Origin: Patescibacteria group bacterium
GTDB lineage: Bacteria; Patescibacteriota; Patescibacteriia; 2-12-FULL-60-25
Assembly (NCBI GenBank): GCA_041661725.1
Contig: JBAZTX010000003.1
Location: 218,794 to 282,793 of the forward strand
Direction of reading: 5' to 3'
Length of the DNA: 64,000 bases
Shown here: positions 5,265 to 61,020 of the stretch, piece by piece
Layout: each line of letters starts with the position of its first letter
How positions within the stretch are numbered: position 1 is the first letter of the stretch
Program-made: the position numbers and the translations under genes
The notes under the pieces: generated by a model
Databases searched by the model: none
The model's input: only the letters and a program-made list of their open reading frames with translations
Told to the model about the DNA's origin: nothing

Positions 5265-5315
5265 AGTCCATAAAGTCAAAAGTCCATAAAGTCCATAAAG
5301 TCCTTAAAGTCCTAG
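5265..5315. repeat. Tandem ~9 nt stutter repeat (agtccataa x ~6)
   Basis: agtccataa-agtcaaa-agtccataa-agtccataa-agtccttaa-agtcctag. A related ataaagtcc word occurs at 4475-4490. Confidence 0.85.
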
Positions 5316-5418
5316 TATTGATGTAAGATTAATTTTTATGTTGGCAGAAGGCATGTAGGGTGTAAGATCGATTTGTCGATGTTACGTGCTACGTGTTATA
5401 TGTTACATGACTATATAT

Positions 5419-7236
5419 ATGTTGAATTTGTTAAAAAAGCACTTTGGATACGAAACGTTTCGTCCGTTGCAAAAAGAGATTGTCGAGCATTGCGTTGCGG
5501 GCAAAGACGCGTTGGTGTTGATGCCGACAGGTGGAGGCAAGTCTTTGTGCTACCAGTTGCCGGCTCTTAAATTCTCGGGATTGACGGTCGTCATTTCGCC
5601 TTTGATCTCGCTCATGAAAGATCAGGTCGACGCATTGCGCGCCAACGGCATTGCTGCGGCTTACATGAATAGCTCGCAAAGTCCGACAGAGAACAGGCAG
5701 GTGGAAGAGTCTGCGGCACGCGGCGAGATTAAGCTTTTGTATCTTGCGCCGGAGCGGTTGGCTATGCCGCGCACCGTCGACTTTTTGCACGGCCTGCAAA
5801 TCAGCTTGTTCGCGGTTGACGAGGCTCACTGCATTTCCGAATGGGGGCATGATTTTAGGCCGGAATATCGCAATCTTGTTTCGTTGCGTGATTTGTTTCC
5901 CGGAGTTCCCGTCCTCGCTTTGACTGCGACGGCTAACGCCCGCGTACAAGGAGATATAATCGCACAACTTAAACTGCAAGGAGGACGAGTCTTCCGTTCC
6001 AGTTTTGACAGGCCGAATTTAACTTATCGCGTGCTGCCCAAAAAACGTTCGCTGGATCGTTTGGTGCAAGAAATCCGCAAGCTTCCGAGTCAAGCGGCCA
6101 TAGTCTACTGTTTTTCGCGCAAACGTACGGAAAAGTTTGCGGCGGATTTATGCGCCAACAACATCAAAGCCGCTGCCTATCATGCGGGTTTGACTGCGGA
6201 TGAGCGTTCGCGCATTCAAGATGATTTTATTCATGATCGAGTCCCCGTCATCTGCGCAACGATCGCATTCGGCATGGGCATCGACAAACCCGATGTTCGT
6301 CTCATCGCTCACATGGATTTGCCAAAGTCAGTCGAAGGCTATTATCAAGAGACGGGTCGCGCCGGCCGCGACGGTTTGCCTAGTGAATGTCTATTGTTTT
6401 TCTCGAACGGCGACCGTTTTTTGCATAATTATTTCATCAATCGGATGCAGGATGCCGATGAAAAGGTCCGCGCTCGACGTCAACTTGATCAAATCAGCAA
6501 TTATTGCGAACAGGACAAATGTCGCCGCGCATTTTTGCTCAAATATTTTGGCGAGGAATACGTCAAAGGTAATTGCAATGGTTGTGACGTTTGTCTGCCA
6601 AAAACGGAAGTCGCAACTGTGCAGGAAGTCGAGTTTGACCGCGAACTGTTTGAGGAACTTCGCTTGCTGCGCCGATCAATCGCACAAGAAAAGTCCATAC
6701 CGCCGTATTTGGTTTTTGGCGACAGGTCTTTGCAAGACATGTCGCGCTGGTATCCTCAAAGTAAAGAAAACTTTGCAAAAATCTTTGGAGTTGCGGAAAA
6801 TAAATTGCGGGAATACGGCACAGCTTTCATCGATTCGATTCGCGAATATGCTGAAGCAAACGGCATTGGCGAGCGTGAAATTCCGGAGGCGACAAATAAA
6901 CCGGCGAGAATTTCGCGTGCTCTCACTCCAACGTATTTGACGACCGTTGAAATGTACAAAAAGATGATGTCGCTTGAACAAATCGCGCAAGCGCGTGGCT
7001 TGGTGGTCGGTAGCATAGTCAATCACCTGGAAAAAGCTTTTGAGCTGGGAGTCGATCTGGATTTTTCGCGTTTATCTTTTCCGGAGGATCGTCTAAACCG
7101 CATTGAATCGGCTTTTAAAAAATCAGGCAATGATTTTTTAAGCTCGGCGCGGGAGATTTTGGGAGAAGGATTTGAATATGATGAAATCAAAATCGCGAGA
7201 ATGATTTTGAAGGCGAGGGAACGTTCGATGAATTAA
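5419..7236 (+). CDS. recQ: ATP-dependent DNA helicase RecQ
   Basis: Motifs [30 protein letters not shown] and LTATA, a Zn-binding C-x-C...C-x2-C region ([12 protein letters not shown]...CNGCDVC) and an HRDC-like tail. The ORF track starts at GTG 5386; in-frame ATGs lie at 5407 and 5419. Confidence 0.9.
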
Positions 7237-7240
7237 TTAT

Positions 7241-8101
7241 ATGTCTAAAACTATACAAGGTAAGACGACCGAAGCGATGATATCTATTGTCCGTTTCGAA
7301 AATTCGGCGATTCGACGACATTGGGACGAAGATCAAGAGAAACAATATTTTAGCGTTGTTGATATAATTGGGGCTATCACGGGGAGCAGCATCCCCAAGC
7401 GCTATTGGACGGACCTAAAAAAGAGACTCAAGGATGAGGGATTTGAGGTGTACGATAAAATCGTACAACTGAAGTTTCTGGCTAAAGATGGCAAAAAATA
7501 TGCAACTGACTGTGCAGACGTAGAAACAATGCTTCGTATTATTCAAAGCGTTTCGTCGCCAAAAGCAGATCCGATTAAGCAATGGCTTGCTCATATCGGT
7601 TATGAACGTATTGAAGAAACGATCGACCCGGAGAAAGCCATCGATCGCGGAATGGCAACTTATCTGTTGAAAGGTTATTCTCCGGAATGGATTAACCAGC
7701 GATTGCGCTCCATTGAAGTACGAAAAGAGCTTACGCAAGAATGGAGCCAGCGAGGAATCAAAAACGGCGGTGAATTTGCACAGCTTACTGACATACTGAC
7801 GCACAGATGGTCTGGATTGCGAACAAGAGATTATAAAAAGGTCAAAGGTTTGCAGGGTCATAACCTTCGCGACCACATGACGACGCTTGAACTTGTCTTA
7901 AACATGCTCGCCGAAGCCGGCACAACGGAGATTGCGCGCGCGGATGATGCTCAAGGTTTTGACGGTAACCGCGATGCGGCAGTCAAGGGCGGTGGGATTG
8001 CCGGAGATGCGAGGAAGAAACTTGAAGAAACAACAGGAAAGCCCGTCATATCTTCTAGTAACCGTTTGCCGAAATCGTCGGATCGCAAATTTTTGAATTA
8101 G
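7241..8101 (+). CDS. Bro-N domain / DNA-damage-inducible protein D (DinD)-like protein
   Basis: RRHWDEDQEKQYFSVVDIIGAIT...TDCADVETMLRIIQSVSSPKADPIKQWLAHIGYERIEE...NLRDHMTTLELVLNML matches the Bro-N + DinD pattern. The gene starts 4 nt after recQ. Confidence 0.75.
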   Translation: MSKTIQGKTTEAMISIVRFENSAIRRHWDEDQEKQYFSVVDIIGAITGSSIPKRYWTDLKKRLKDEGFEVYDKIVQLKFLAKDGKKYATDCADVETMLRIIQSVSSPKADPIKQWLAHIGYERIEETIDPEKAIDRGMATYLLKGYSPEWINQRLRSIEVRKELTQEWSQRGIKNGGEFAQLTDILTHRWSGLRTRDYKKVKGLQGHNLRDHMTTLELVLNMLAEAGTTEIARADDAQGFDGNRDAAVKGGGIAGDARKKLEETTGKPVISSSNRLPKSSDRKFLN

Positions 8102-8167
8102 TAAAATTGATTCAATAGAAATAATAAAAGCCCGTTTGGTGCAGGTGGGCGAGGCCTGTGGAGAGAA

Positions 8168-8596
8168 TTATGTGCTGTGCTCTGCGAGATCAATGCCGAT
8201 GTCGGCCGGGCCAAATGAGTGGGGCAGCAGATCGGAGAGCTGGACGATGCCCGTCGCGAGCATGATTTCGATGTCGTATTTGTTAAGCGATGACCATTCC
8301 ATCAATTTTTGCCTGCATTTGCCGCAGGGCGGAATGATGGTTGGCGCACAACCCTCCAGTGCACCGACTGCAACAACCAAGATTGGATGTCTTTCACCGG
8401 CCGCGACCATTGCGCACAGAGCGGCTTCCTCGGCATGGGTGTCGTCATTATCTACGCCCTGCACATTGCAACCGATATAGATGTTGCCCGTCTTGGTGAG
8501 GACAGCTGCCCCAACCATGAACTTAGTGTATGGCGCGTAGGCATTGACTTGCACGTCCATCGCCCGAGAGACGAGCTCTTCAACCTGGTGCATCAT
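8168..8596 (-). CDS. cdd: Cytidine deaminase
   Basis: AYAPYTKFMVGAAVL, zinc ligands HAEEAAL and PCGKCRQ. The start is uncertain (in-frame ATGs at 8617, 8596 and 8593); the ORF-track start at 8677 adds an implausible leader. Confidence 0.85.
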   Translation of the reverse strand: MMHQVEELVSRAMDVQVNAYAPYTKFMVGAAVLTKTGNIYIGCNVQGVDNDDTHAEEAALCAMVAAGERHPILVVAVGALEGCAPTIIPPCGKCRQKLMEWSSLNKYDIEIMLATGIVQLSDLLPHSFGPADIGIDLAEHST

Positions 8597-8787
8597 TGCT
8601 GATGGCTCTCTATTCATTGATAGTCCTTTGTGAGAAGTTGCTGCGGAGGTTGTAGCAGAAAAAATAAGAAAAGTCAATAGTATTAAACCCCCGATAACTC
8701 GGGGGCTTTTGTACGTTATGGCTTGTGAAACGTCGCTTCGATGTTATTTTGCAGGTTTCGAAAGTGGGGAAGGAGAAGGTGTGATTG

Positions 8788-10804: not shown

Positions 10805-10807
10805 GCG

Positions 10808-13320: not shown

Positions 13321-13395
13321 TGGGGTGACCAGAGGGAGTTGAACCCTCGCCAGCGGGACCACAACCCGCTGTTCTACCGTTAAACTATGGCCACC
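13321..13395 (-). tRNA. tRNA-His (anticodon GTG), CCA encoded
   Basis: Reverse complement is GGTGGCCATAGTTTAACGGTAGAACAGCGGGTTGTGGTCCCGCTGGCGAGGGTTCAACTCCCTCTGGTCACCCCA. The acceptor stem includes a G-1:C73 pair, the anticodon loop is TTGTGGT and the T-arm is GGGTTCAACTCCC. Confidence 0.9.
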
Positions 13396-13508
13396 ATGCT
13401 CAATGAACAATGAACAATTAAAAATTTACAATTTAACTGCCGGTTGCTCACAAATAAAAGTACGCGGTGATATTTATACCGTATTTTGCGGTCTTTGGCA
13501 AGATTGGG

Positions 13509-14291: not shown

Positions 14292-14761
14292 TTACTTTAC
14301 TACGATAAAGGAGAAAGTCAAAGTTTATAAATAGTCTGATTTACGGCGATTTGATAAGTTTTATCACCGATTATCAACAAAGATGAGATAAAATACTTTA
14401 TTTGAGTAAAGTGCACATGTGGATAAAATGATGCAAGTTTAGCTCGGTTAAGCGTCAAAAATGTCTTTTTTGACAAGATGTGCAAAGGTATGGGAAGTTT
14501 AATGAAATAGAACTTGAAAATGGATGCATCGGAAGAAAGGTGCCATTAAATTTAACCATAATTTTCGGCAGGATCGGCAGCTTAAGGAGTCGGGTACAAT
14601 TAAAGATTGCAAACACGCGAATAATTTTTTGCGATTTGCGTTATTTTGAGAAGCCACGACCTGTCTGTCTTTTTCAAACTCTTTTTAAACCTTGAGCCGG
14701 TCATTAGTCATCAGTCATTTGTCTTTAGTCTTTAGTCATTAGTTTTCCTAACCCCACTGAT

Positions 14762-18088: not shown

Positions 18089-18176
18089 TGAGTTTAGAGT
18101 TAGACGCAAGATTTTGCGTCTCTACACAAACTCTTCAACCCCTGTCGTCTGTCGTCTAATACCTGTTGTCTATATT

Positions 18177-19363: not shown

Positions 19364-19485
19364 GATGAAAGCAGGTCGATCGAGGTGCGCCGGATGCGGC
19401 GCTTATTGTGTTTTGATCTTTAAAAGAGTAAATTGATTACCAATAACAATTCTACACATGTCGTCTGTTGTCTCTCGTCTAAACT

Positions 19486-21510: not shown

Positions 21511-21589
21511 GCGTCCAATATTCAGAATTCGATATTCAGCGCGCGATATAGTATAGTAGCGAGCGGATATTCGATATTCGTCATATAAT

Positions 21590-25577: not shown

Positions 25578-25636
25578 TGACAATTAACAATGAATAATTA
25601 ACAATGAATAATTTCATTAAGAAACGACTAATAACT

Positions 25637-26944
25637 ATGAAATACGCCTACGCTATTGCTATAAGTCTCGCTTTGTTCGGAGCGGGATGCTTTTCGAATC
25701 GTCCCACGTCGCTCGTCCCACGTCCCACGTCGACGGAGCAGAATGCGACGACGACAGTGGATCAAAATCAGTCTGCACCCGGGACGGGAAGCTGGCTGCA
25801 ATACAGAAACTACAATTATGGTTTTGATTTCAAATATCCTGCGAATGCAGTCGAGACTTATAGAAGCGATTCGGCGACAGGGACTGTTTTTACTTTGGAT
25901 CTCGGTCCGACCGTTGCAAGCTCAACCGCGCTTTCTGTACCGGAAGATACGCTTGATGTTAAAATTATTTCTGACGAGATGAGTGCTGATCTTAAAAGCA
26001 GAATTAATATCGAAAACAATTGTTATAATGAGGACGGAGAGTCAGCGCGGGTAACGCCAGGAGTAATCTATAACGGACAACAGGTCTGCGTCGTCGAAAG
26101 CGCGGGCGCGGCTGCAGGGAATCGTTACAATCAATATTGGTATACTATTCCGCTCGGTAAAAAGAATCTGGTTTTTGCTTTCACGATTCACTCGGTCAAT
26201 TGTCAAAACTTCGATAAACCGGGTGCGTGTCTGGCGTTTGATGAAAGCCGCGATTCGCTGGTGAGCAAAATGATAATGTCTACGCTAAATACTTTTACAC
26301 CTAGTAAGAGCAAAGAGAATTTGAATTTGCGATTTGAGACAAAGTCGATTAAAGAAGAGGCTAAAGATCATTCGGTTGATGTGAAATATCCGGTCATGTT
26401 TGGCGGAGATGCTGCGGTGAGAGGTGTGATCAACGGCGCGATCAATACTTACATCAGCACAACGACGCAGACTTTTGCTAGATTGCTTAAGACGGAAGGT
26501 AAAGCGTCACCTGGACCTTTTGTGTTACAGGGCAATTATTCGATTTATAACGTCAGTTCGAATGTTGTCAGTATCGTTTTTAACGGCTACGAATACACGG
26601 GCGGTGCACATGGGATTTCGATTTTCGAGACTTTTGTTTTTGACACTACGACAGGCAACCGTTTGTCGTTTGATGACATCTTCAAATCCGACAGCGGTTA
26701 CCTAAAAATCGTTTCAGATTATGCAATCGCTGAACTTTCCAAGAAGCCGGATATGGATGTTGAGGGCTTAAAATCAGGCGCCGCACCGGATTTGAAAAAT
26801 TATCAATATTACTACTTGAATCAAGATGGCCTCGTTATCATCTTCCCGGAATATCAAGTTGCGCCGTACGCAGCGGGTCCACAGGTTGTGACCGTGCCTT
26901 ACGCCTCACTGAAAGACATAATGAAACTGGAAACTAGAAACTAG
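25637..26944 (+). CDS. Lipoprotein with DUF3298/DUF4163-type (RsiV/PdaC-like) C-terminal domains
   Basis: Lipobox LALFGAGC and YEYTGGAHGISIFETFVFDTTTGNRLSFDDIF...LVIIFPEYQVAPYAAGPQVVTVPY. The last codons and the stop lie inside a PE-1 half element. Confidence 0.75.
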   Translation: MKYAYAIAISLALFGAGCFSNRPTSLVPRPTSTEQNATTTVDQNQSAPGTGSWLQYRNYNYGFDFKYPANAVETYRSDSATGTVFTLDLGPTVASSTALSVPEDTLDVKIISDEMSADLKSRINIENNCYNEDGESARVTPGVIYNGQQVCVVESAGAAAGNRYNQYWYTIPLGKKNLVFAFTIHSVNCQNFDKPGACLAFDESRDSLVSKMIMSTLNTFTPSKSKENLNLRFETKSIKEEAKDHSVDVKYPVMFGGDAAVRGVINGAINTYISTTTQTFARLLKTEGKASPGPFVLQGNYSIYNVSSNVVSIVFNGYEYTGGAHGISIFETFVFDTTTGNRLSFDDIFKSDSGYLKIVSDYAIAELSKKPDMDVEGLKSGAAPDLKNYQYYYLNQDGLVIIFPEYQVAPYAAGPQVVTVPYASLKDIMKLETRN

Positions 26945-26955
26945 AAAGAGCAAAT

Positions 26956-29746: not shown

Positions 29747-29909
29747 TGACGGCCTGCCGACGCCGTCCTTAAACTCAAGTCGACCGTCCCCATTTCGGAC
29801 GCTTCAGCTCTCACTCTGCTGCCCTTAGCTTTATAGCGCAGGCAGCTCTTTTTTTTAACTAAAATTTTTTAATTGTACATTGTTCCTTGTTAATTGTATG
29901 ATTGTTCCC

Positions 29910-31736: not shown

Positions 31737-31823
31737 AAAAATAACAAATAACAAATAACAAGAGCAACTAAGCGACTCTTGATATTTGTATTTAAAAAAA
31801 GAGCCTCGTCAGCAGTCGATGGG

Positions 31824-38631: not shown

Positions 38632-41600
38632 ATGTCATTTAACGAAGAACAAATCGCGCAACGCATAGACGAGGCGCTCGAAGGCAATGAAAGCAAGGCG
38701 ATGCCAGAGGACAGGCCTTATTTGCGCATGGCAAAAGCTCTTAAGCAACATGCCGCATGGAAACAGGACAAAATGGATCCGAAAGTTATGGCTGCACAAA
38801 AAGAGCATCTGCTTGAGGCGGCGAAAAACCTTGAATCCCGAATCCCGAATCCCGAAATCCGAGATTCAGCGCAGCGGACATTCAGCGAAGCGGACATTCG
38901 ACATTCGACCCAAGTTCGTCGGCCCTGGTTCCTCTGGGTCGGCGGAGCGGTTGCTGTTGCGGCCGTCGTGCTGCTCGTCTTTGCTGCACAGACGGGGACT
39001 ATTCCTTTTAAACAATTATTCAAAACTCAATCGCAGAGCGGTTTGTCAAAACTTTCGTTGGTTATTCCCGCCGCCAACGCAGGTGATGCATTCAGTATGC
39101 TGGTTGAAAAACAAAATGACGGCACAGCGGAGCTTGATACTTCTTTTCAAATAAATTCTAAGGTTGATATTGATCAAGATAAGCTTAAGCAGAGTTTGCG
39201 CGTGGTTAAAGTTTCGGATCAGGGCGATGAAAGCGTGCCTTTTGATTTTAACAAAACGGGCGACAATCAATTTAACGTTAAGCCTCAAAATGAGTTGGAA
39301 ACGGGCAGTGTTTACCGCGTAGTGATTGCAACTGCAGTGCAGGGCGAAACGGGAGATTTGCGCCAGCGCGATTTTTCGTGGGCAGTGCAAACAAAGGATG
39401 TTTTTAAAATCATTCGCGCCGTACCCGGCGATGCGTCCACCGGCGTACCTCTTGATACGGCAATTGAGCTTACTCTTTCGCAGGTCGGTTGGCAGGATCC
39501 GGCGCAGTATTTTGCCGTCGAACCGCAGGTCGATGGTCGATTCGAAACGCACGGCCGCACGTTGGTCTTTTTGCCGAATAAGCCTTTGTCGCCTTTGACT
39601 CTGTATACCGTGACTTTTAAAAAAGGTTGGGGTTTAGGCGACGGCGGATCAACTTTGAACGATGATTATTCTATACGTTTTCAAACCAGCTCCGGCAAAG
39701 TCAGCTCTGCGCAAAAATACATCAATGTCACATCGTACTTGTTTGAATCTGCGCCCGGTACGGAGCCGGTTATCGGCGTTTGGTACAGCGATGTAGATAA
39801 GCCGGTTACGGTTACAGGTTATTCATTATCATTTGATGATGCCAAATCAGTCATTCAAAAAATCGAAAGCCAGCCTTCGTGGATTGATGCAACTGACATT
39901 CGAAATAAAACATTGGCAGACAAAGTCGGCGGTCAGGCGTTTACGCAACAGGCGAATTTGGAAAATGTGGGTGAATATAGCAAAGGAATAAGATTGTCGA
40001 ATTCCATTTCGGCAGGTTTTTACGCCATTCGTTTGGATCAAGAAGGTGTGCAGCCCACTTGGGTTTTGTTGCAAGTTACAAATCTGGCGGCATATTCGAT
40101 GGCCGACAAGGATCAGATTTTGGTTTGGACCGTTAACACGGAAACCGGCAAACCGGTCGAGACAACCGTATCCATGGATGGACAAGCTGTCAAAACAGAT
40201 TCGCAGGGTACAGCTCGCCTTAAAACTCCGGAATCGTGGTCAGCTAGTGATACGAATATCACGAGGAACGCACCGGCGGTCGTCTTAGAACTGGGCGAGG
40301 GTTCCATGCGATTGCTCAGCGTTTTGCGTAAAGATTGGGAATTCATGTATTTTGGTTCTTCTTACGGAGGTAACGGCGCATCTTTCGACACGTGGTCCTA
40401 TCTTTATAGCGACAGGCCGCTGTATCGCTCGCAAGATAAAATTAATGTCTTTGGTTTGCTGCAGGATAGAAATTCCAATCGCGGCACGGGAACTGCGGAG
40501 GTGAGGTTGATGAATCGCAGTTTCATTGATTACGGAACTTACGACAGCAAGGTTTATGCCAAAGCGGATCTTAACGAAGACAATGCGGGATTCTTTAGCG
40601 GTCAGATTTCGTGGAGCGGTACGCTTACGCCCGGATACTATGAATTGGTTTTGTTTAAAGACGGCCAACGCGTGACTTCGCGTTCAATCGAAATCAGAGA
40701 CACGGTGAAACCGGCTTATTACTTGCAGGTCGTGCCTGAGCGTGTGAACGTTTTTACGGGCGAACAAGCAAAAGGCCAGTTGATTGCAAAATTTTTTGAT
40801 GGTACGCCGGTTGCAAAGGCAAAGATATTATTGAATGCTTCCGGCGGATTCGATTCCACCAATCAACCGTTGACAGTCACGACGGATGATGCCGGTTATG
40901 CAAGTTATTCTTTTAACCTCGGTACGCCCAAGTGCGATTTGGGGGAACGCTATCAAAATTGCTACGCGCAAACCAATTTGAGCATAGAGGCCAGACCGGC
41001 TGTCGGTGAAGAAGGAGAGATCTACGCTTACGCAAGTTATAACGTTTGGCGCAGCCATTCTTCGCTTAATGAAGATTCGATTAAAGAAGATAACGGAAAC
41101 GCAACTTTGCGTTATAGAGTGCGCAAGGTTGATCCGAGTAAGGCCAACGGCCGCACGGACGATTCTGTTTTAACAGATGGCCAAGCCAGCGTAAGCGTAA
41201 AAGCGAAATTTATCGAGCAGCATTGGGATAAGACTCAGACGGGAACGTACTTTGATTCTCTGGAAAAGAAAGTAGTACCGCAATACAGGTATGTGCAGCG
41301 CGATGTAGAAGCCGGGAATTTTGATGCAGTGACGGATACTAACGGTTATGCGACTTTCAACTATCAGCTTAAAGACAATATTTCTTATCGCGTTGTTGTA
41401 TGGACCGATAATGGCGGCGCAACGCAGTCTGTAACGTCTTACGTATCAAAAGGTTGGTATGACCGTTCGGGCAACGATGCTCCGAGTTTGGTATCGACGG
41501 ACGCAGCTGATAATCGTAACTCATTTAATTTGGGAGATAAAGTTTCGTTAAGCTTTACTCAATCCGGACAAAAAATGAGCGGTGAAAATGAAAGTTTTAT

Positions 41601-46376: not shown

Positions 46377-46473
46377 CAAAAAACGTACATCGCGTACATA
46401 GCGTGCATAGCGTACATCGCGTTTTTTTTCGCCATGTACGTCAGGTACGCGATGTACGTTATGTACGCTTCGC
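46377..46473. repeat. PE-2 palindromic element, copy 2 (left flank of GC-rich cassette)
   Basis: aaaaaacgtacatcgcgtacatagcgtgcatagcgtacatcgcg-ttttttttcgcc-atgtacgtcaggtacgcgatgtacgttatgtacg. Confidence 0.8.
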
Positions 46474-46475
46474 GT

Positions 46476-46518
46476 AGAAACACATCGAGCCCGATCAGGA
46501 GTAAACCTGTCGGGCTCG
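46476..46518 (-). terminator. Intrinsic terminator of 46542-47021
   Basis: Minus strand: cgagcccga-loop-tcgggctcg followed by atgtgtttct. Confidence 0.65.
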
Positions 46519-46541
46519 GAAAGTGGCGCGCGTTCTGCGGA

Positions 46542-47021
46542 TCAGAACGCCTGCGCCCTGAGGATGATGTTGTTGGAGACGGCCAAGATCTTGACTGACT
46601 CGAGAGAGATCTCGTTGCCATGAAGATCGACTGCGAAGAAGTTGCAATCTTCTGCTCCGATCTTCTCCATGAACTCGAGATCGTGGCACACGGTCATGCA
46701 GATGCATGCCTGTTTTGCGCCGATCGTCGGCCTGAATCCGACGTAGTACCCGGCACGTGCATGTTCTGCACCGACCCTGCAGAAGACCCCCATCTTGCGG
46801 GTGTACTTCGACTTTGCATTCGTCACCAGACCGTCTGTCGGCGTGGCGCAGGCATCTCCCTTGACCAGCGTGCCGTTGATCGGCCCGCTGAAATTCATCC
46901 AACCGTAGAAGATACGCAGGGCGAGCCATGACCACACGATCTCGCCGACGTTCTTGCGATTGAAGTGGTAGGCCTCGGATCGCGCGCTCAGGAAGGCGAT
47001 GATTGCCATCAGAGTCTTCAT
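46542..47021 (-). CDS. GC-rich, Cys-rich secreted hypothetical protein
   Basis: 159 aa from ATG 47021 (MKTLMAIIAFLSARSEA signal-like), SD aaggaga, 8 Cys. The ORF-track N-terminal extension (to 47243) reads through the promoter and a repeat. Confidence 0.65.
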   Translation of the reverse strand: MKTLMAIIAFLSARSEAYHFNRKNVGEIVWSWLALRIFYGWMNFSGPINGTLVKGDACATPTDGLVTNAKSKYTRKMGVFCRVGAEHARAGYYVGFRPTIGAKQACICMTVCHDLEFMEKIGAEDCNFFAVDLHGNEISLESVKILAVSNNIILRAQAF

Positions 47022-47088
47022 TATCTGTCTCCTTGTAAAGAACGGCAAAGCCGCCTCTTTGTTGACGTAAAAAACGACTATGAGGCTA

Positions 47089-47117
47089 AGTATAGCATAA
47101 AAATGGGGTTTTGTCAA
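47089..47117 (-). promoter_or_regulatory. Near-consensus sigma70 promoter for 46542-47021
   Basis: Minus strand reads TTGACA, 17 nt spacer, TATACT. Confidence 0.7.
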
Positions 47118-47121
47118 CCCC

Positions 47122-47218
47122 CGCCACGCGTACTTAACGTACATAACGTTCATAACGTACCTGACGTCGTCGGACGCTATGCACGCGATGTACGTGATGT
47201 ACGTTAGGTACGTTATGG
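47122..47218. repeat. PE-2 palindromic element, copy 3 (right flank of GC-rich cassette, inverted relative to copy 2)
   Basis: cgcgtacttaacgtacataacgttcataacgtacctgacgt...acgctatgcacgcgatgtacgtgatgtacgttaggtacg. It aligns best with the reverse complement of 46377-46473 (shared gcgtac.taacgtacat, gtacctgacgt, acgctatgcacgc). Confidence 0.75.
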
Positions 47219-48330: not shown

Positions 48331-48454
48331 ACGCCGTATATAATACCTCTTTTTATGACTTCTTGACACCCGTACCGGTTTGCTATATATTCCTAGCCAG
48401 CCACTAGGCTTTTGTCCGGTGCTACATGCTCCATGTTATGTGTTACATGACCAT

Positions 48455-48862
48455 ATGAACAGTTTATTTCGCGTTTCCGCGCGCAATCATGCGGGATTGA
48501 TCCTTATGACGATGATTGCCGAAGCCAAAAGCTCCGGTGATTTTGTGAGCTTAAAAGATGTTGCCGGGCGCATGAGTCTTTCACAAGGCTTTTTGGAAGA
48601 GATCGCCATGGCGCTGAAAAAGTCCGGTTTGATCAAGGGCCGCAAAGGACCGGGCGGCGGATACAGATTGGCCAAGCCTGCATCAAAAATTACGGCTGAA
48701 CAGATTTTAACTGCACTCGAAGGTCCGATTGCGCTTGTTGAATGCAACGGCGGAAAGTGTCCCGTCGCTTCGCATTGCTCTTCCAAGTCGCTTTGGAACT
48801 TTTTGCAAAAAGACGTTTTAGCTTCATTAAAAAAGACGACACTCGCTAAGTTGGTAAATTAA
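48455..48862 (+). CDS. Rrf2-family transcriptional regulator (IscR-like)
   Basis: wHTH SLKDVAGRMSLSQGFLEEIAMALKKSGLIKGRKGPGGGYRL and Cys ligands VECNGGKCPVASHC. First ATG used; the upstream extension is made of gttacatg-type repeat words. Confidence 0.85.
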   Translation: MNSLFRVSARNHAGLILMTMIAEAKSSGDFVSLKDVAGRMSLSQGFLEEIAMALKKSGLIKGRKGPGGGYRLAKPASKITAEQILTALEGPIALVECNGGKCPVASHCSSKSLWNFLQKDVLASLKKTTLAKLVN

Positions 48863-48863: not shown

Positions 48864-50231
48864 ATGTCTGAATCCCCATTGTCATTTCGACCGAAGCGTA
48901 AAAGCGAAGTGGAGAAATCTCATCGCTCAAAACCTTCAACAGCTCATCGAGTTGGTCATGGTTTGAGATCGGTTTATTTGGATAACGCCGCAGCCTCGCC
49001 GCTTGATGCAAAAGTTTTAAAAGCGATGTTGCCTTATTTTAGTTCCATTGCTGCTAACCCGTCATCTTTACATTCCGCGGGACAAGCTGCTAACAAAGCC
49101 GTGACACAGGCGCGAAAGTCAATTGCTGAAATCATAAATGGCCATGCCGATGAGATCATTTTTACTTCGGGGGGAACCGAGTCGGATAATTTGGCGATTA
49201 ACGGTGTCATTGCGGAATGTCGTACAACGTACAACGTACAACGTACCAACGTCGAAAGCGGGTTGCCGCATGTCGTCACGACCGCGATCGAGCACCATGC
49301 GATATTGGAGTTGCTGACGCGTTTACAAAAGAAGGGCGAGATTGATTTGACTATCGTCAAACCGCAAAAGAATGGCGTCGTGAAAGTCGACGACGTGATG
49401 TCGGCCATAAATGACAGAACCGTCTTGGTCAGTGTTATGTATGCCAACAACGAGATCGGCACGATCCAACCAATCGGCGATATCGGACGGGCGATACTCA
49501 AATATCGAAGCTCGAAGCTCGAATCTCGAAACATCGAACGTGGTACGTCGTACGATGTACGTGGCACGTTTCCTTTGTTTCATTCCGACGCCTGTCAGGC
49601 CGCGGGTTATCTTGATTTGAATGTTGAAAAATTGCATGTTGATTTGCTGACTTTAAACGGCGGAAAAATTTACGGACCAAAAGGCATCGGATTTTTGTTT
49701 GTCCGCCGCGGAGTAAAACTTGCACCGACTGTTATCGGCGGAGGTCAGGAAAGAGGTTTAAGATCCGGCACGGAAAACGTGCCGGGAATCGTCGGCATGG
49801 CAAAAGCATTGGAGCTGGCGCAAAAAGATCGCGATAAAGAATCAAAACGTCTTGCGCAGCTTCGCGACAGATTGATAAAAGGACTTTTACGCATTCCAAA
49901 GTCGCGCTTAAACGGCGATCCTGTCGAGCGTTTGCCTAATAACGTTAACATCTCGTTTATGGACATCGAGGGCGAGGCAGCGATGTTGTACTTGGATGCA
50001 AAAGGCATCTCGTGTTCAACCGGTTCGGCCTGTGCATCAACTTCGCTCGATCCATCGCATGTCATTCTCGCACTCGGCATGTCGTACGAAGCTGCACACG
50101 GTTCACTTCGTTTTTCTCTCGGTCACGACACGACAAAGTCGGACGTTGACTACGTAATAAAAGTAATGCCCGGCATTGTCGAGATGCTGCGCAAGATTAG
50201 TCCGGTAACATTGGACATGTCGCATTTCTAA
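48864..50231 (+). CDS. iscS: Cysteine desulfurase (NifS/IscS class) with three repeat-derived in-frame segments
   Basis: VYLDNAA, FTSGGTESDNLAI, HSDACQAAG and active-site loop STGSACAS. The true start is uncertain because the first ~30 codons derive from a gtcatttcgaccgaagcg repeat. Confidence 0.9.
   Translation: MSESPLSFRPKRKSEVEKSHRSKPSTAHRVGHGLRSVYLDNAAASPLDAKVLKAMLPYFSSIAANPSSLHSAGQAANKAVTQARKSIAEIINGHADEIIFTSGGTESDNLAINGVIAECRTTYNVQRTNVESGLPHVVTTAIEHHAILELLTRLQKKGEIDLTIVKPQKNGVVKVDDVMSAINDRTVLVSVMYANNEIGTIQPIGDIGRAILKYRSSKLESRNIERGTSYDVRGTFPLFHSDACQAAGYLDLNVEKLHVDLLTLNGGKIYGPKGIGFLFVRRGVKLAPTVIGGGQERGLRSGTENVPGIVGMAKALELAQKDRDKESKRLAQLRDRLIKGLLRIPKSRLNGDPVERLPNNVNISFMDIEGEAAMLYLDAKGISCSTGSACASTSLDPSHVILALGMSYEAAHGSLRFSLGHDTTKSDVDYVIKVMPGIVEMLRKISPVTLDMSHF
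49221..49255. repeat. cgtacaa stutter block in frame in iscS
   Basis: cgtacaacgtacaacgtacaacgtaccaacgtcg encodes RTTYNVQRTNV, placed between the conserved NLAI and HV.T..IEH blocks. Confidence 0.8.
49503..49568. repeat. cgaagctcgaa + gtacg stutter block in frame in iscS
   Basis: atatcgaagctcgaagctcgaatctcgaaacatcgaacgtggtacgtcgtacgatgtacgtggcacg encodes YRSSKLESRNIERGTSYDVRGT, just before FHSDACQ. Confidence 0.8.
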
Positions 50232-55136: not shown

Positions 55137-55246
55137 TAGACTCTCCTCGTAGATCCCCGCAGCATTATGCGCAGGGGAAAGAACGATTGTTTTTGTTTTA
55201 AATCTTTCATCCGGCGCTACTCGCAAAGAGCTTAGCCGAACGTGTG

Positions 55247-55274
55247 ATTGTACATTTTTTTGGGACTTTGTCAA
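55247..55274 (-). promoter_or_regulatory. Near-consensus sigma70 promoter for 53778-55136
   Basis: Minus strand reads TTGACA, 16 nt spacer, TACAAT, giving a ~110 nt leader. Confidence 0.7.
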
Positions 55275-55282
55275 CCCTATTT

Positions 55283-55353
55283 AACTAGAAACTGGAAAGA
55301 GCGATTCGGTTTAACACATAACTCTTTCCAGTTTCTAGTTTCCAGTTTTCAGT
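55283..55353. repeat. PE-1 palindromic element, full copy
   Basis: aactagaaactggaaagagcgattcggtttaacacataactctttccagtttctagtttccagttttcag. Its right arm encodes the last codons (ILKTGN) and the TAG stop of the methyltransferase gene. Confidence 0.85.
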
Positions 55354-56534
55354 ATCCTTACGTTCCTACGCAGATGCTGTCCGGTTCTTTCGTAATACAT
55401 GTCCATTTGCCTTAGATTGGCGGGCAAATCCTCCAAAGCGAATCCCAGTGACGCAAAGTCGATGTCCGAATCCGTTGCAATGATTTGCGAGCCGACTTTG
55501 TAAGACGGAAAAATGGCAACAATGCGTCCATCTTTTTTCATCAATGGTTTAAGCGCTGCCAGAGCATCTTTCCAAAGTTGAGTGATTTGAGATGCGTTTT
55601 TTTGAATCTCGCTCAACGATTCGCGGCCTCTCAAGGCAGGTCCGAGCCAGCCTTCCGTAACAACCGCATCAATCGATTTCGGCGAAAGATAGTGCCCGAC
55701 TTCTTTTACATCAGAAGTAAAAACTTTAAAACGAGTTTCATCGTCTTGCGATAAAATATTTTTATTCAAAAGCCATTCTAAGTTTCCGGAAGTGTCATCC
55801 GTTTGTCGTTCGTCGATGTCGCTGCCGATTATTTTTGTTTCGCTTGTCGCCAAAGCGGCTTCCATTAAAATAGTGCCTGATCCGCAAAACGGATCCAACA
55901 AAGTTCCGCCGTCCGGCGTTTGTGCAAGATTGACCATCATGCGCGCAAGTTTTGGCGGCAACATTCCGTTGATATCATCGCGGCATGGGCGGCCGTAATC
56001 GCGCAAACTCCACGCGTCAGCATCTTGTACCTGCGTTGTGCGTCCCAAAAAAGTTTTGCCTTTGTCGAGCATCAAACAAAAATCTGCGTTTGGTTGTTCG
56101 GTCAGATGGCATTTGGCCACCGCGGCAGGGGAGAGCGGCTGCCCGCCTTCGCCGCTGACCCAACGGATCTTCCATCCCAATTCTTTTAATGCACGTTTAA
56201 TGTGCAATGGATATTTTTCAAAAATCTTTTTTTCTTTTCCATTTCCTCCAAAGGACGTCCAACCGAATTCAAGACCTGTCATCTCTTGTTTGCCGGAGGC
56301 GAGCTGTGCAATATCTGCAGCTTTCAAATCCGTGCCTTTTGACTCCAAAATCACGTCGCCGAGCTTAATGACTCCGCCAAGTTGGCTCATTAGAACATCA
56401 GCCTGCCAGTCGTTCATCTCCACGATGCAGGTGTTTGGAGTTTGGGAGACTATTTTCGCCTTTGGTTTAAAAGCCAAAAATTCCGCTAAAGATAGCCGTG
56501 GATGGTTGCCGAAGACAAGAAAGTGGAGAGCCAT
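55335..56534 (-). CDS. THUMP-like + class I SAM-dependent RNA (guanine-N2-type, Trm11/RlmL-like) methyltransferase
   Basis: N-terminal FLVFGNHPRLSLAEF, SAM motif I LLDPFCGSGTILMEAAL, motif IV-like DAVVTEGWLGP. Start taken at MALHF; the upstream extension consists of cgtccc repeat words. Confidence 0.65.
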   Translation of the reverse strand: MALHFLVFGNHPRLSLAEFLAFKPKAKIVSQTPNTCIVEMNDWQADVLMSQLGGVIKLGDVILESKGTDLKAADIAQLASGKQEMTGLEFGWTSFGGNGKEKKIFEKYPLHIKRALKELGWKIRWVSGEGGQPLSPAAVAKCHLTEQPNADFCLMLDKGKTFLGRTTQVQDADAWSLRDYGRPCRDDINGMLPPKLARMMVNLAQTPDGGTLLDPFCGSGTILMEAALATSETKIIGSDIDERQTDDTSGNLEWLLNKNILSQDDETRFKVFTSDVKEVGHYLSPKSIDAVVTEGWLGPALRGRESLSEIQKNASQITQLWKDALAALKPLMKKDGRIVAIFPSYKVGSQIIATDSDIDFASLGFALEDLPANLRQMDMYYERTGQHLRRNVRILKTGN

Positions 56535-56712
56535 AATAAACGCCAATATGATACAGCGTCCCGCGTCCCGCGTCCATCGTCCCACGTTAGCGGTCAAACC
56601 TTGACTTTTTGAGTTATTTATGGTGGTCTATGCGTATCTCGTATATTCTATACGAAGGTCTTCGACAACCTAAAAGACGGCTATGGCGGCCGTCAAACCA
56701 GGGAGAAAGACA

Positions 56713-58745: not shown

Positions 58746-58814
58746 ATCCCTCCTTGCTGGGATGGTCGGAACCCCCTCGCCCTCATGCCGGACTACCACC
58801 TCCCCCTTCGGGTA

Positions 58815-59139: not shown

Positions 59140-59685
59140 ATGCGACTTTACGAGTTGCTTTACATCATCCCGGCTACCCTGGCTGAAGAAGAAGTCAGCC
59201 AAGCCGAGAATGAGATCCAGGCGCTTATCCAGCGCTACAACGGCGTGCCAAAAGAAACGCGCCGCTTGGGCAAGTTCAAGTTTACATATTTAATTAAAAA
59301 GGTCAGACATGGCCATTACGTGCTTTCTTATTTTGAGGCAGAACCGGTAGAGGTCGCCAAAATCAACGAGGCGCTGCGCATTCATGAAAAAGTTTTGCGC
59401 CATCTGATTTTGCGCGCCGAAGAAGCGGGCGGAAGCGAGTTTAATCTGGTACAATTCCAAGAGGTGGTTGTGGAAGGCGGCGCCAAAGATGACCGCACAA
59501 GACGCCGCAAGATGGAGGCTGAAAAATCCAAGGCAGCAGAAGATGTCAAAGTCGCCGCGGAGTTAGACGCCAAGCCTGAAGAAAAAACGGAAGACGAGGA
59601 AGGCTCTGTAAAAGAAGAGGCTGAAAAAATCAGCCCCGAAGAGCTCGACCGCAAAATCGACGCTGCGCTCACTGAAAATACGTAA
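59140..59685 (+). CDS. rpsF: 30S ribosomal protein S6 with long K/E-rich C-terminal extension
   Basis: MRLYELLYIIP...HGHYVLSYFEAEP...LRHLILR, followed by ~85 aa of charged tail. The ORF-track start is GTG at 59128. Confidence 0.9.
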   Translation: MRLYELLYIIPATLAEEEVSQAENEIQALIQRYNGVPKETRRLGKFKFTYLIKKVRHGHYVLSYFEAEPVEVAKINEALRIHEKVLRHLILRAEEAGGSEFNLVQFQEVVVEGGAKDDRTRRRKMEAEKSKAAEDVKVAAELDAKPEEKTEDEEGSVKEEAEKISPEELDRKIDAALTENT

Positions 59686-59731
59686 TTTATTCATTGTTAA
59701 TTGTTATTTGTAAATTGTTAATTGAATAAGT

Positions 59732-60181: not shown

Positions 60182-60186
60182 ACTCT

Positions 60187-60402
60187 ATGAATAAAAAAAC
60201 TCCGCATAATTGTTATTTCTGCCACTCGAACATCGAAGAGATCAACTATAAAGACACTAACTTGCTGCGCCGCTATCTTTCCTCTTTCGGCAAGATAGTA
60301 GCCCGCAAGCGCTCCGGCGCCTGCAGCTGGCACCAGCGTAAGTTGGCCGGCGCTATCAAACGCGCACGCTTTATGGCCATCCTTCCATTCGTAGTCAGAT
60401 AA
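60187..60402 (+). CDS. rpsR: 30S ribosomal protein S18
   Basis: CYFC...INYKDTNLLRRYLSSFGKIVARKRSGACSWHQRKLAGAIKRARFMAILPF. Confidence 0.95.
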   Translation: MNKKTPHNCYFCHSNIEEINYKDTNLLRRYLSSFGKIVARKRSGACSWHQRKLAGAIKRARFMAILPFVVR

Positions 60403-60405
60403 GTT

Positions 60406-60434
60406 AAAAACCCCGACTTGACGTCGGGGTTTTG
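60406..60434 (+). terminator. Intrinsic terminator of the rpsF-ssb-rpsR operon
   Basis: aaaaaccccgac-ttga-cgtcggggtttt. Confidence 0.85.
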
Positions 60435-60469
60435 ATTAGCGTGTTCATTTGTGATTTACTATCAATCAT

Positions 60470-60967
60470 ATGACAGATCAATCTTTAGAGCATCATCGTC
60501 CTTCAGCGGACGAATATTTCCTCGAAATAGCCAAGACCGTCGGCTCGCGCGGCACTTGCGACCGCGGACGCATCGGCGTCGTTCTTGTCAAAGATAAAAG
60601 AATCTTGGCAACCGGTTATGTCGGTTCGCCGATCGGCACGCCGCATTGCGACGAGGTCGGACACCAAATGCACAAAGTCACGCATGAGGACGGAACCGTG
60701 ACTCAACACTGCGTGCGTACTTCCCACGCCGAGATAAATGCAATCTGCAATGCGGCCCGTTACGGCGTTGCCATCGACGGCGCAACTTTGTATGGTAAGT
60801 TTGAGCCGTGTTATACTTGTGCCAAAGCGATGATAAACGCCGGCATCAAGCGCGCTGTTTACGAGCGTTGCTATCACGCGGCAAGCGAATCCAGAGAACT
60901 GTTCAAACAAGCCGGCGTGGAGCTTGTCGTGTTGTCCGACGAAGTCGAGCAGTACGCGAATCAATAA
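60470..60967 (+). CDS. comEB: dCMP deaminase (ComEB-type)
   Basis: DEYFLEIAKTVGSRGTC.R..IGVVLV, HAEINAI, PCYTCAKAMINAGIKRAVY. Confidence 0.9.
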   Translation: MTDQSLEHHRPSADEYFLEIAKTVGSRGTCDRGRIGVVLVKDKRILATGYVGSPIGTPHCDEVGHQMHKVTHEDGTVTQHCVRTSHAEINAICNAARYGVAIDGATLYGKFEPCYTCAKAMINAGIKRAVYERCYHAASESRELFKQAGVELVVLSDEVEQYANQ

Positions 60968-61020
60968 ATGACATTTAATAACCAATAAACAATTCTGGCT
61001 ATCGTCTATCGTCTAATAAT

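Follow-up and report, generated by a model that had tools for sequence, protein, structure and literature searches.

Heptamer and nonamer arrays at the edges of genes in a Patescibacteria genome: probable selfish or near-neutral repeat elements

Why should short words of DNA stutter directly at the starts and ends of genes? The question is raised by a 64,000-nt stretch (the window) of a 1.37 Mb Patescibacteria genome (G000), in which the first-pass annotation had noticed eight families of repeated words. All eight are where it had placed them, by TRF and direct reading, and each block is indeed a tandem run of slightly varied copies of one word; as a group they sit tight against SD-less starts and gene ends. 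TRF recovers 14 of the listed blocks, and two others that it missed are readable by eye (the block at 48418-48452 scores under its threshold). The gene names given at the time (recQ, rrf2, DUF3298, sigma factor, ssb, GH18-CE4-GT2) agree with Pfam. The blocks, most of which are solo arrays, are given here together with their state in G002, a congener of about 90% identity.

5265-5312, minus strand: solo nonamer array (TRF: AGTCCATAA x5.6) in the divergent spacer before recQ, reading GGACTTTAT toward the minus-strand gene 4820-5167; RNA fold unstructured, MFE 0; 2.6 copies in G002, a difference of whole units (9+7+9)
5379-5409, plus strand: solo heptamer array ATGTTAC/GTGCTAC x4.4 (TRF), running into the recQ ATG (5407); neighbouring RecQ domains match Pfam; same in G002
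13401-13435, plus strand: solo AACAATT/AATT superfamily array (TRF), adjoining a minus-strand tRNA (13324-13394); one substitution against G002
14700-14743, plus strand: solo GTCATTA x6.3 array (TRF), 18 nt upstream of the GH18-CE4-GT2 ATG (14762); RNA fold unstructured; 21 nt (3 units) shorter in G002
18142-18172, plus strand: GTCGTCT-type array (TRF, 18142-18157) upstream of a glyoxalase-family gene whose true ATG is probably at 18177; 21-nt indel (3 units) against G002
19459-19480, plus strand: GTCGTCT GTTGTCT CTCGTCT, read directly, ending 5 nt before an ATG at 19486
21518-21580, plus strand: GATATTC and ATATTCAG arrays (TRF) in a 79-nt spacer, ending 9 nt before an ATG at 21590; the spacer does not align with G002
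25582-25613, plus strand: AATTAACAATGAAT x2.3 (TRF), spanning the stop at 25577 and the DUF3298 gene ATG at 25604; 14 nt (2 units) less in G002
25700-25731, plus strand: stop-free CGTCCCA x4.6 (TRF) inside the DUF3298/PdaC gene, encoding ..RPTSLVPRPTST..; kept in G002 with substitutions
29869-29906, plus strand: T-rich TTAATTG/TTGTTCC array (TRF), running into the start of an ECF-type sigma factor gene (Pfam); same in G002
31739-31790, no strand, convergent spacer: hairpin element (AAATAAC)3-AAGAG-loop-CTCTTG-(ATATTTG..) (TRF, 31739-31761); RNA fold -13.2 kcal/mol, z -6.5; an ACAACTA-family hairpin instead in G002
38833-38909, plus strand: GAATCCC x3.4, a 16-mer x2.2 and GACATTC x2.4 (TRF), in frame within a 1766-aa gene
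48418-48452, plus strand: GCTACAT GCTCCAT GTTATGT GTTACAT, read directly, just ahead of the rrf2 ATG at 48455 (Rrf2 Pfam match downstream); word family of the recQ array at 5379-5409
56556-56587, plus strand: GCGTCCC/CGTCCCA x4.6 (TRF) in the divergent spacer 56478-56682; same in G002
59682-59724, plus strand: T-rich ATTGTTA x4.6 array (TRF), ending 7 nt before the ssb ATG (59732; Pfam); weak fold, z -1.4; same in G002
60999-61015, plus strand: CTATCGT x2.4 (TRF), ending 5 nt before an ATG at 61021; a CGTACATAA-type nonamer array instead in G002

These blocks are members of one genome-wide population of short tandem-repeat elements. Run over the whole genome, TRF returned 514, 150, 30 and 177 rows for periods 7, 14, 21 and 9, far over the chance level of about 36, 6, 0 and 39 given by three 5th-order Markov simulations, while periods 8 and 10 stayed close to expectation. 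The population consists of about 540 heptamer and 180 nonamer arrays with a median length of 4 units; it makes up 6.7% of the intergenic DNA, where arrays are enriched about 10-fold, and occupies 280 of 954 spacers (29%). The preference for period 7 extends across unrelated words, and stop-free words persist in frame within housekeeping proteins (HflX-like, IscS-like and GlpK genes). The proximity to gene edges also holds genome-wide: by our own crude gene calls, an array edge falls 5-15 nt before a start codon in 80 cases against about 30 expected, and at a stop or 0-5 nt after it in 62 against about 16, the expectation being random placement in the same spacers.

Are the arrays then dedicated cis-acting initiation signals, that is, promoter or leader/standby sites of SD-less or leaderless genes? 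The first-pass annotation had suggested such a role, and it matches the proposal made by MacGregor for TAACTGA repeats (PMC4679880). Besides the enrichment upstream of starts, several features of the start sites agree with it. SD-like 4-mers precede only 17% of starts, the 3' end of the 16S being a normal CCUCC; TATAAT-like hexamers rise from a background of about 4 to peaks of 32 and 26 at -14 and -12 relative to the ATG, and many genes of this genome look leaderless. Of 51 AATT-type arrays, 28 stop 7-9 nt short of the ATG, and the arms of this family contain the -10-like hexamers CATAAT and TTAATT. Solo arrays are unstructured as RNA and, upstream of starts, T-rich on the sense strand by 59 to 11, and the TAACTGA repeats of Beggiatoaceae show the same geometry. 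Near starts there is a real constraint on array spacing and orientation; the T bias and the 7-9 nt spacing could mean a real cis function, which would speak against selfish elements.

As a general explanation, however, initiation is not supported. Arrays are equally frequent in divergent, tandem and convergent spacers (30% of each), and since convergent spacers hold no start, their occupation by arrays and hairpins speaks against a general role of this kind. Other arrays lie in frame inside genes, GC-rich and AT-rich words are found at the same positions, and of 137 genes preceded by an array only 14 have a strict -10 box where a leaderless gene would have it. Complementarity to the 16S tail, proposed as a check, is confined to one word, CTAGAAAG, which faces gene ends and not starts. 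Nor are there conserved word-specific gene sets, because the G002 orthologues carry a different word, another copy number (fewer units) or no array. Dedicated initiation signals are thus an unlikely identity for the arrays.

Another aspect of the population is its architecture. An inverted partner is present for 252 of 714 arrays, against about 10 in the control, and about 35% of arrays are arms of hairpin elements of 65-110 nt, the rest being solo arrays or half elements. Among the two-arm elements (n=99), the A-arm comes first (A-rich 5', T-rich 3') in 82 of 92, and the hairpins fold as RNA with z of -3.5 to -7.5. The same words are found again and again, at dozens of loci whose flanks are unique; within some families, the inner junction GAAAGAG..loop..CTCTTTC is also common to such loci. 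Outside the first list, the window holds the following elements.

600-678, no strand: complete AAACTRG hairpin (A-arm, GAG..26 nt..CTC loop, T-arm), which begins on the upstream gene's stop codon; RNA fold -25 kcal/mol, z -3.6; between its flanks G002 carries an ACAACTA-family hairpin
18098-18125: REP-like hairpin, a repeat class other than the GTCGTCT arrays
26923-26947, plus strand: AAACTRG half element, A-arm plus the family inner junction GAAAGAGC without T-arm, providing the TAG stop of gene 25604-26944
33164-33194, plus strand: CAGACAA/CAGACGA x4.4 (TRF), in frame in an HflX-like GTPase gene; a different, longer insert in G002
46384-46468, no strand: nonamer hairpin (CGTACATNG)4-T8-(inverse)4; RNA fold -47.2 kcal/mol, z -6.0; conserved in G002; its word family also flanks the PF05635 gene at C2:296005-296448 of G000
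47129-47217, no strand: another nonamer hairpin of that family; RNA fold -45.1 kcal/mol, z -4.5
49221-49252, plus strand: CGTACAA x4.4 (TRF), in frame in a cysteine-desulfurase-like gene; another element type in G002
49505-49569, plus strand: TCGAAGC x3.7 and ACGTGGT x4.6 (TRF), in frame in the same gene; the 21-nt TCGAAGC part is missing from G002
55283-55357, no strand: AAACTRG hairpin in spacer 55227-55334; RNA fold -28.7 kcal/mol, z -7.5; a GAGTAAC-family hairpin instead in G002

Perhaps the paired arrays are functional as RNA: their hairpins could be bidirectional intrinsic terminators or RNase III sites, and solo arrays would then be decayed halves of them. RNase III processing sites occur in the stems of rRNA IVS, and in tandem spacers the hairpins begin a median of 5 nt past the stop codon; their polarity is that of bidirectional terminators, their folds are strong, and half elements keep the inner junction. 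Yet the rate of hairpins is equal in divergent (6%) and convergent (4%) spacers, some lie inside coding genes, and one heptamer hairpin sits between 23S and 5S, ahead of the latter, where a terminator would do harm. Mirrored units, moreover, are complementary no further than the family consensus, so that functional hairpins are a very unlikely answer. The two arms of one element are only slightly more complementary than arms taken from different elements of a family (0.68 vs 0.63; 0.79 vs 0.70), an observation that also counts against copying as selfish units.

The comparison of G000 with G002, made over 23 blocks, finds 10 conserved; another 5 differ by indels of whole units (25=9+7+9, 21, 21, 14 and 21 nt), and 8 are swapped for another family between conserved flanks. 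The slots themselves are kept between congeners, 21 of 27 being common to these two, and their contents often belong to another word family; even the same protein site holds different in-frame inserts. Word families bloom lineage-specifically: G000 has 94 matches to the AAACTRG pattern, two congeners have 29 and 28, and 15 of 22 have none.

Could the arrays be a pure mutational by-product, slippage favouring 7-nt units (Mrazek 2007) that grow in situ without being copied between loci? The whole-unit nature of all G002 indels, the period-7 preference across unrelated words and the heptamer excess reported in many bacteria would all fit. What makes this improbable is the sharing of identical words and inner junctions by dozens of loci whose flanks are unique, the lineage-specific blooms, the replacement of whole elements in conserved slots, and a heptamer density that tracks PF05635 copy number and is near chance level in PF05635-free relatives. 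As for contingency (phase-variation) loci, with slippage switching the adjacent genes, the suggested copy differences do exist between species, as whole units directly upstream of starts (5265, 14700, 18142, 25582), but the idea is hardly credible for arrays that are short and often identical across about 10% sequence divergence, whose neighbours are housekeeping genes (recQ, ssb, sigma factor) and whose in-gene changes are multiples of 21 nt that never shift the frame.

There is a statistical association between the arrays and PF05635, a small multi-copy gene of the "23S rRNA IVS protein" or Avd-like four-helix-bundle family. Its 5 copies in G000 each have an array at most 30 nt upstream, and the genes typically occupy the loop position between inverted arrays; in the congener G024, AAACTRG..GAAAGAG/CTCTTTC arms enclose one. 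Congeners carry 0-15 copies, some with stops. A flanking inverted-repeat score of at least 19 is reached by 19 of 33 PF05635 copies, compared with 2.6% of the G000 genes as a whole and 3 of 38 ORFs neighbouring the copies. In a survey of the class, with samples of 20-40 kb per genome, the 7 genomes with 6-13 copies have a heptamer density of 3.5 per 10 kb and the 8 genomes without any have one of 0.72 (one-sided MWU p=0.002, uncorrected for phylogeny and GC content), and the control periods 8/10/11 give 2.3 and 1.7. The tie extends to Xanthomonas, where GGGAATC repeat #15 of PMC4692102 overlaps the start of XCC0516, the PF05635 protein of PDB 2GSC. Because PF05635 genes sit in the loop between inverted arrays, the gene-less hairpins look like IVS-type elements lacking cargo. 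Some observations point the other way: the loops of gene-less AAACTRG elements are unlike deletion remnants of the G024 PF05635 cassette, and the congener G005 (84% complete) has arrays, PF05635 not being found in it. PF05635 is not known to have a transposase-like activity; a search for a reverse transcriptase found none, and no target-site duplication was seen at the elements.

The first-pass annotation knew of no description of such a system, and here the literature corrects it. The closest relatives are the long simple-sequence repeats (LSSR/STRR) of heterocystous cyanobacteria (Mazel 1990 and Mrazek 2007, as summarised in PMC4679880 and PMC4692102), which likewise are short 7-nt tandem arrays. 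A genome has several word families of them; they are strongly intergenic, occur sporadically among phyla and have no assigned function. The arrays are the Patescibacterial form of these heptanucleotide repeats, and differ in the small genome of the host, the dozens of words plus nonamers, the third of arrays paired as fixed-polarity hairpins, the occasional in-frame gene inserts and the PF05635 association. The GGGAATC heptamers of Xanthomonas form 70-75 inverted pairs per genome and vary in length between close species in kept slots, 83% of them shared (Rehm et al. 2015, PMC4692102). Intergenic placement, inverted pairs, variable length in kept slots and an array at a PF05635 gene start are all shared with them; however, theirs is a single G-rich, quadruplex-prone word, whereas here the many words are mostly not G-rich and are often swapped between congeners. 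In marine Beggiatoaceae, TAACTGA is one word in 2-6 copies and one orientation, with inverted pairs at 1/170 and downstream genes of no functional pattern (MacGregor 2015, PMC4679880). Those heptamers also end a few nt upstream of starts without SD. The present arrays differ in their many words and hairpins and in being just as common at gene ends and in convergent spacers.

Other systems resemble the elements in part. Rickettsia palindromic elements, which are non-tandem palindromes of 100-150 bp in few families, are similarly tolerated in frame in housekeeping proteins, but the inserts here are tandem 7/9-nt units and differ at the same protein site in two congeners. REP/REPIN-RAYT systems share the dispersed extragenic hairpins and the small gene typically between inverted repeat copies; yet the heptamer-flanked gene here is PF05635, without known nuclease or transposase fold, and the two RAYT-like genes of the genome have GC-rich REP hairpins of their own as flanks in place of heptamer arrays. 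Finally, a 23S rRNA IVS with a PF05635 (S23p/IVP) ORF also carries it in the loop of a long stem of inverted flanks, and IVP ORFs occur in CPR rRNA insertions (PMC11270868); the present cassettes, in contrast, lie between protein genes and outside 23S, have stems made of tandem heptamers, and in most copies carry no gene.

We favour, at a probability of about 0.6, the reading of the arrays as short tandem-repeat elements, selfish or near-neutral and linked to PF05635, which would be copied between loci and altered in size by slipped-strand mispairing. Close to starts, selection would filter how they are oriented and spaced, and some arms may have been recruited as -10-like boxes. In a compact genome, such elements would persist wherever they are harmless, that is, between one gene's stop codon and the -10 box or ATG of the gene that follows, a zone that would reach so far because many genes look leaderless; persistence in this zone would give the pattern of words placed directly at gene starts and ends.

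The genome of the Patescibacteria bacterium studied here, G000, comprises 1.37 Mb in 13 contigs at 48% GC and is rated 99.96% complete; for the ssb gene of the window (C3:218794-282793), the relatives found belong to Patescibacteria/CPR only. The first-pass annotation had described blocks of stuttering words in the window, and nearly all of those it listed were recovered there by TRF, mostly with a period of 7, 14 or 9, while two that TRF missed (48418-48452 and 19459-19480) are evident on direct reading. Across the whole genome, TRF reported 514, 150, 30 and 177 rows at periods 7, 14, 21 and 9; the chance level, taken from three Markov simulations (5th order) run on the same contigs, is about 36, 6, 0 and 39, respectively, and periods 8 and 10 lie near the Markov expectation. 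The stuttering is therefore real and specific to 7-nt units, with some 9-nt ones, at about 14-fold over chance. These arrays are short (median 4.1 copies, 29 nt) and varied, with 125 canonical heptamers and 19-50 loci for each of the top families. In Rfam, the sole match in the window is one tRNA.

Many arrays of the common words are arms of a bigger element, made of an array, a loop of 12-30 nt and the reverse-complement array. An inverted partner lies within 120 nt of 252 of the 714 arrays, as opposed to about 10 in the control, and both arms were detected by TRF in 99 elements, which are 65-110 nt long; the A-rich arm comes first in 82 of 92. Strong RNA folds (z -3.5 to -7.5) occur at 600-678, 31739-31790, 46384-46468, 47129-47217 and 55283-55357. 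The solo arrays at 5265-5312 and 14700-14743 have a wholly unstructured RNA fold, and solo arrays form the majority of the blocks first listed. The same words serve as solo arrays and as arms: 84 of the 157 arrays are paired in the AATTNNN superfamily, 54 of 70 in the AAACTRG family and 25 of 63 in the ACGTNNN family. In AAACTRG the inner junction is conserved as GAAAGAG, a loop of 19-21 nt (consensus CGAYTCAGYNNACTKGYAAA, in either orientation) and CTCTTTC, and some solo copies retain it, for example that at 26923-26947, which also holds the stop codon of the gene at 25604-26944. The outer flanks of the elements are unique at each locus. For mirrored units, complementarity inside one element barely exceeds that seen across elements of one family, and exact arm-to-arm pairing was therefore rejected as a sign of selected structure.

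Where do the arrays lie? Genes were called with a home-made, dicodon-scored ORF picker, which gave 1296 genes covering 87% of G000. After merging, 259 of 538 heptamer arrays are wholly intergenic, 84 cross a gene boundary and 195 fall within called genes; 59% of array bases are found in the non-coding 12.6% of the genome, and 6.7% of the intergenic DNA is covered. At least one array is present in 280 of 954 spacers (29%), and the share is equal for divergent (48/158), tandem (190/657) and convergent (42/139) spacers. The early claim that the blocks sit at gene starts and ends is borne out: 80 array edges lie 5-15 nt from a start, and 62 at a stop or within 5 nt of one, compared with about 30 and 16 on random placement, the former in the same spacers.

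A comparison with G002, a congener collinear with the window at about 83-94% identity, reveals how these sites evolve. Of 23 blocks compared, 10 are identical or nearly so (including those at 5379, 29869, 46384, 56556 and 59682) and 5 differ by whole units (25 nt, that is 9+7+9, at 5265, 21 nt at each of 14700, 18142 and 49505, and 14 nt at 25582). At the remaining 8 slots, as we call the sites that hold an array, G002 has another word family or another sequence, with flanks conserved up to the element boundary.

Examples of slots with swapped content (window positions; G000 compared with G002)
600-678: AAACTRG in G000, ACAACTA in G002
31739: content differs in G002
37983: content differs in G002
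55325: AAACTRG in G000, GAGTAAC in G002
60999: CTATCGT in G000, CGTACATAA-type array in G002

A syntenic array exists in G002 for 21 of 27 window slots; the slots are kept while their contents turn over. The differences in unit number seen here are between species and all involve whole units. On a wider scale, the AAACTRG pattern has 94 matches in G000; two congeners have 29 and 28, four have 1-3, and 15 of the 22 lack it. The congeners sampled mostly carry 2-11 heptamer arrays in every 10 kb, as compared with about 0.3 by chance, and their top words differ; scattered other Patescibacteria have words of their own, including hairpin pairs on either side of ssb. As to the suggestion that blocks could mark landing sites for GC-rich cassettes, the one GC-rich unit bracketed by two nonamer hairpins (46377-47218) is conserved in G002 and is thus not a recent insertion. 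Between these two hairpins lies a gene without a Pfam match (46542-47021, minus strand); their family encloses a PF05635 gene elsewhere.

Turnover extends into proteins. In an HflX-like GTPase (33164-33194), an IscS-like, cysteine-desulfurase-like protein (49221-49252, 49505-49569) and GlpK, neither genome has a reading frame that is interrupted by the inserts, and protein alignments of G000 and G002 place different inserts at the same protein site. As with RPE-like insertions, the repeat is placed in frame in conserved protein genes and leaves the ORF unbroken; in-gene length changes are of 21 nt. Stop-free words, such as CGTCCCA, are found in genes, and words with stops on both strands, such as AAACTAG and AATTAAG, only in spacers. 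The surface sites at 33164-33194 and 49221-49252 look like hot spots of insertion or conversion within proteins. A third type of repeat, '..gtcattcc/tgcgag..ggaatcc..', translated as ..DSRLRRNDK.. or ..VIPAKAGIQ.., was also seen in frame in GlpK of G000 (36690-36810), in the IscS-like gene of G002 (counterpart of 49221) and beside many arrays across G000.

To the following reading of the array population we assign a probability of roughly 0.6. The arrays would be fast-evolving, selfish or near-neutral heptamer elements, existing as hairpins, half hairpins and solo arrays, that change size by slippage and move among slots by copying or conversion. They would be tolerated exactly up to the stop codon and up to the core promoter/ATG of compact, largely leaderless genes, and would be tied in evolution to cassettes encoding PF05635 proteins.

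A much less likely alternative is a role in initiation, as the first-pass annotation had suggested for leader-poor genes. An SD-like 4-mer precedes only 17% of the starts in G000, although its 16S tail is canonical; counts of TATAAT-like hexamers rise sharply from a background of about 4 to 32 at -14 and 26 at -12 relative to the ATG, and 54% of starts have T at position -1. These features, exemplified by ssb (59732) and the start at 61021, suggest from sequence that leaderless mRNAs are widespread. An array lies within 30 nt upstream of 137-154 genes. In 28 of 51 cases, an AATT-type arm stops 7-9 nt short of the ATG, and the last unit of such arms (CATAATT/CTTAATT) looks like a -10 box; in other families an explicit TATAAT often comes next, followed by 7-8 nt and the ATG. 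On the sense strand, arrays that lie up to 30 nt before a start are rich in T, both when paired (44:4), as a result of hairpin polarity, and when solo (59:11), and solo arrays after stops have no such bias (32:25). Start-side spacing and T bias therefore show constraint near starts, and some arms may be parts of promoters. The geometry is that of the TAACTGA type, with one orientation and edges peaking 5-15 nt from SD-less starts; TAACTGA itself is absent among the frequent words of G000. Of the proposed role, then, the placement at starts and some constraint there stand, and a word-specific initiation system does not: arrays are equally frequent in convergent spacers, copies occur inside genes, and words are swapped at orthologous genes. 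Complementarity to 16S rRNA was raised at the same time; the canonical tail is matched only by CTAGAAAG of the AAACTAG family, and this arm faces gene ends (16:1) rather than starts, so that it was rejected as a surrogate of the SD sequence.

A role in intrinsic termination was considered too. The stems are stable, the 3' arms are U-rich and the hairpins lie near stops, but the hairpin rate in divergent spacers is the same. Moreover, a heptamer hairpin, (TGGAATT)n-loop-(AAATTCT)n, lies in the 23S-5S spacer upstream of the 5S gene (contig C3, 306202-306273); it is thus transcribed as part of the rRNA operon, which argues against obligatory termination.

Mobilization by known enzymes was also considered. 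With regard to MITEs, inverted arms are present and the outer ends are ragged; where the conserved flanks end in the alignments of G000 with G002, there is no visible target-site duplication. The search for transposase-related families covered Y1 (PF01797) and RT (PF00078) only. A first Pfam search for RAYT gave a match below the cut-off in G000. Two paralogous HUH/Y1 RAYT-like ORFs (C3:132284-132817 and C3:179412-180020) match NF047646, the REP-associated tyrosine transposase, with E values of 1e-16 and 1e-19, below the curated cut-off. Each is flanked by GC-rich palindromes (gttagacgcaagattttgcgtctctac; tagagacgccctcggagggcgtctcta) of a sequence class other than the heptamer arrays, and one copy of the first REP lies just past the stop of the GH18-CE4-GT2 gene (18098-18125). 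In REP/REPIN-RAYT systems, the RAYT gene is flanked by the dispersed repeat itself, whereas the heptamer arrays do not flank the RAYT-like ORFs, so that RAYT is rejected as their mobilizer. A reverse-transcriptase/DGR origin of the PF05635 genes and telomerase-like stuttering are dismissed, as G000 has no RVT_1.

The selfish-element reading also involves PF05635, the 23S-rRNA-IVS/Avd-like family of four-helix bundles, for which we know of no catalytic activity. Each of the five PF05635/TIGR02436 genes of G000 is preceded by an array no more than 30 nt away, which is true of 12% of genes overall, and four lie between inverted arrays or inverted repeats; one is enclosed by CGTACATNR nonamers, the family of the hairpins at 46384-46468 and 47129-47217. 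Among 22 congeners the copy number per genome ranges from 0 to 15, and several copies have internal stops. When the 130 nt upstream were locally aligned with the reverse complement of the 130 nt downstream, 19 of 33 PF05635 copies of the genus scored at least 19, having inverted flanks that could form a long stem, compared with 33 of 1286 G000 genes (2.6%) and 3 of 38 other ORFs of the same loci (8%). In the congener G024, the arms ..AAACTAGAAAGAG and CTCTTTCCAGTTTC.. on either side of a PF05635 gene belong to AAACTRG, the family that is gene-less in G000. The gene-less loops do not look like deletion remnants of the PF05635 cassette, as no similarity was apparent by eye. A small conserved gene (MYQNINEPIEVVV.., with a weak DUF6504 match; C2:295749-295994 in G000, and loci L143 and L144) immediately follows the PF05635 cassette in three congeners or more.

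In a class-wide sample, PF05635 occurs in 57 of 81 genomes, with up to 13 copies per ~1 Mb and often with internal stops; of 14 familiar genomes taken as controls, Bacteroides thetaiotaomicron alone carries it. In small samples of 20-40 kb per genome at fixed coordinates, heptamer arrays number 3.5 per 10 kb in seven genomes with 6-13 copies and 0.72, near chance, in eight with none (one-sided Mann-Whitney p=0.002, for mutually related genomes and uncorrected for kinship and GC). The control periods 8/10/11 do not differ in these samples (2.3 vs 1.7). There are two exceptions: one AT-rich genome free of PF05635 has 3.25 arrays per 10 kb, and the congener G005 (84% complete) has arrays and no PF05635 match. 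Like PF05635-bearing IVSs, the cassettes of the genus often have the ORF between inverted stem sequences, but they differ in location: neither an array nor a PF05635 gene, and no IVS, was found within the 23S gene of G000, and a gene-less hairpin lies in the 23S-5S spacer. The only solved homologue, XCC0516 of Xanthomonas campestris (PDB 2GSC), has GGGAATC repeat #15 on its start codon (Rehm et al., supplementary table, PMC4692102).

Tentatively, and with the odds against it, we consider that PF05635 proteins and heptamer hairpins may form one element system, in which the protein would act in trans to bind, protect or propagate the stems made by the repeats, with the gene-less hairpins and the solo arrays as its non-autonomous copies. 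If true, a single system would cover the hairpins of CPR, the heptamer repeats of Xanthomonas and cyanobacteria, and rRNA intervening sequences, and PF05635 would have its first function outside DGRs.

Comparable repeats have been described elsewhere. An excess of heptamers among long SSRs, with slippage as the hypothesis (Mrazek 2007), and the cyanobacterial STRR repeats are recounted in passages of PMC4679880 and PMC4692102. The Xanthomonas GGGAATC repeats form 70-75 inverted pairs per genome, in conserved slots with a length that varies between species (PMC4692102), and the TAACTGA repeats of Beggiatoaceae end a few nt before SD-less starts (PMC4679880). The TAACTGA system has a single word, whereas G000 has many; the start geometry is common to both. 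With STRR/LSSR repeats, the arrays of G000 share head-to-tail 7-nt units far above other periods, a mainly intergenic location and several word families. Our literature search found no report of such repeats in Patescibacteria/CPR, nor any linking a PF05635/IVS protein to heptamer repeats. The arrays are a known kind of repeat in a new form, and the PF05635 connection is the part that could matter.

Known for 35 years as an oddity of a few bacterial lineages, heptamer microsatellites have gone unexplained. Here, in an ultra-small genome, they occupy almost one third of the spacers; from one sister species to the next they alter the sequence beside starts and stops, and in housekeeping proteins they create additional loops. 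This makes them relevant to annotation (the calling of starts and stops, and spurious ORFs), to binning and assembly, and to an understanding of how SD-poor, apparently leaderless CPR genes are expressed. The association with multi-copy PF05635 genes offers a concrete, testable handle on the origin of these repeats.
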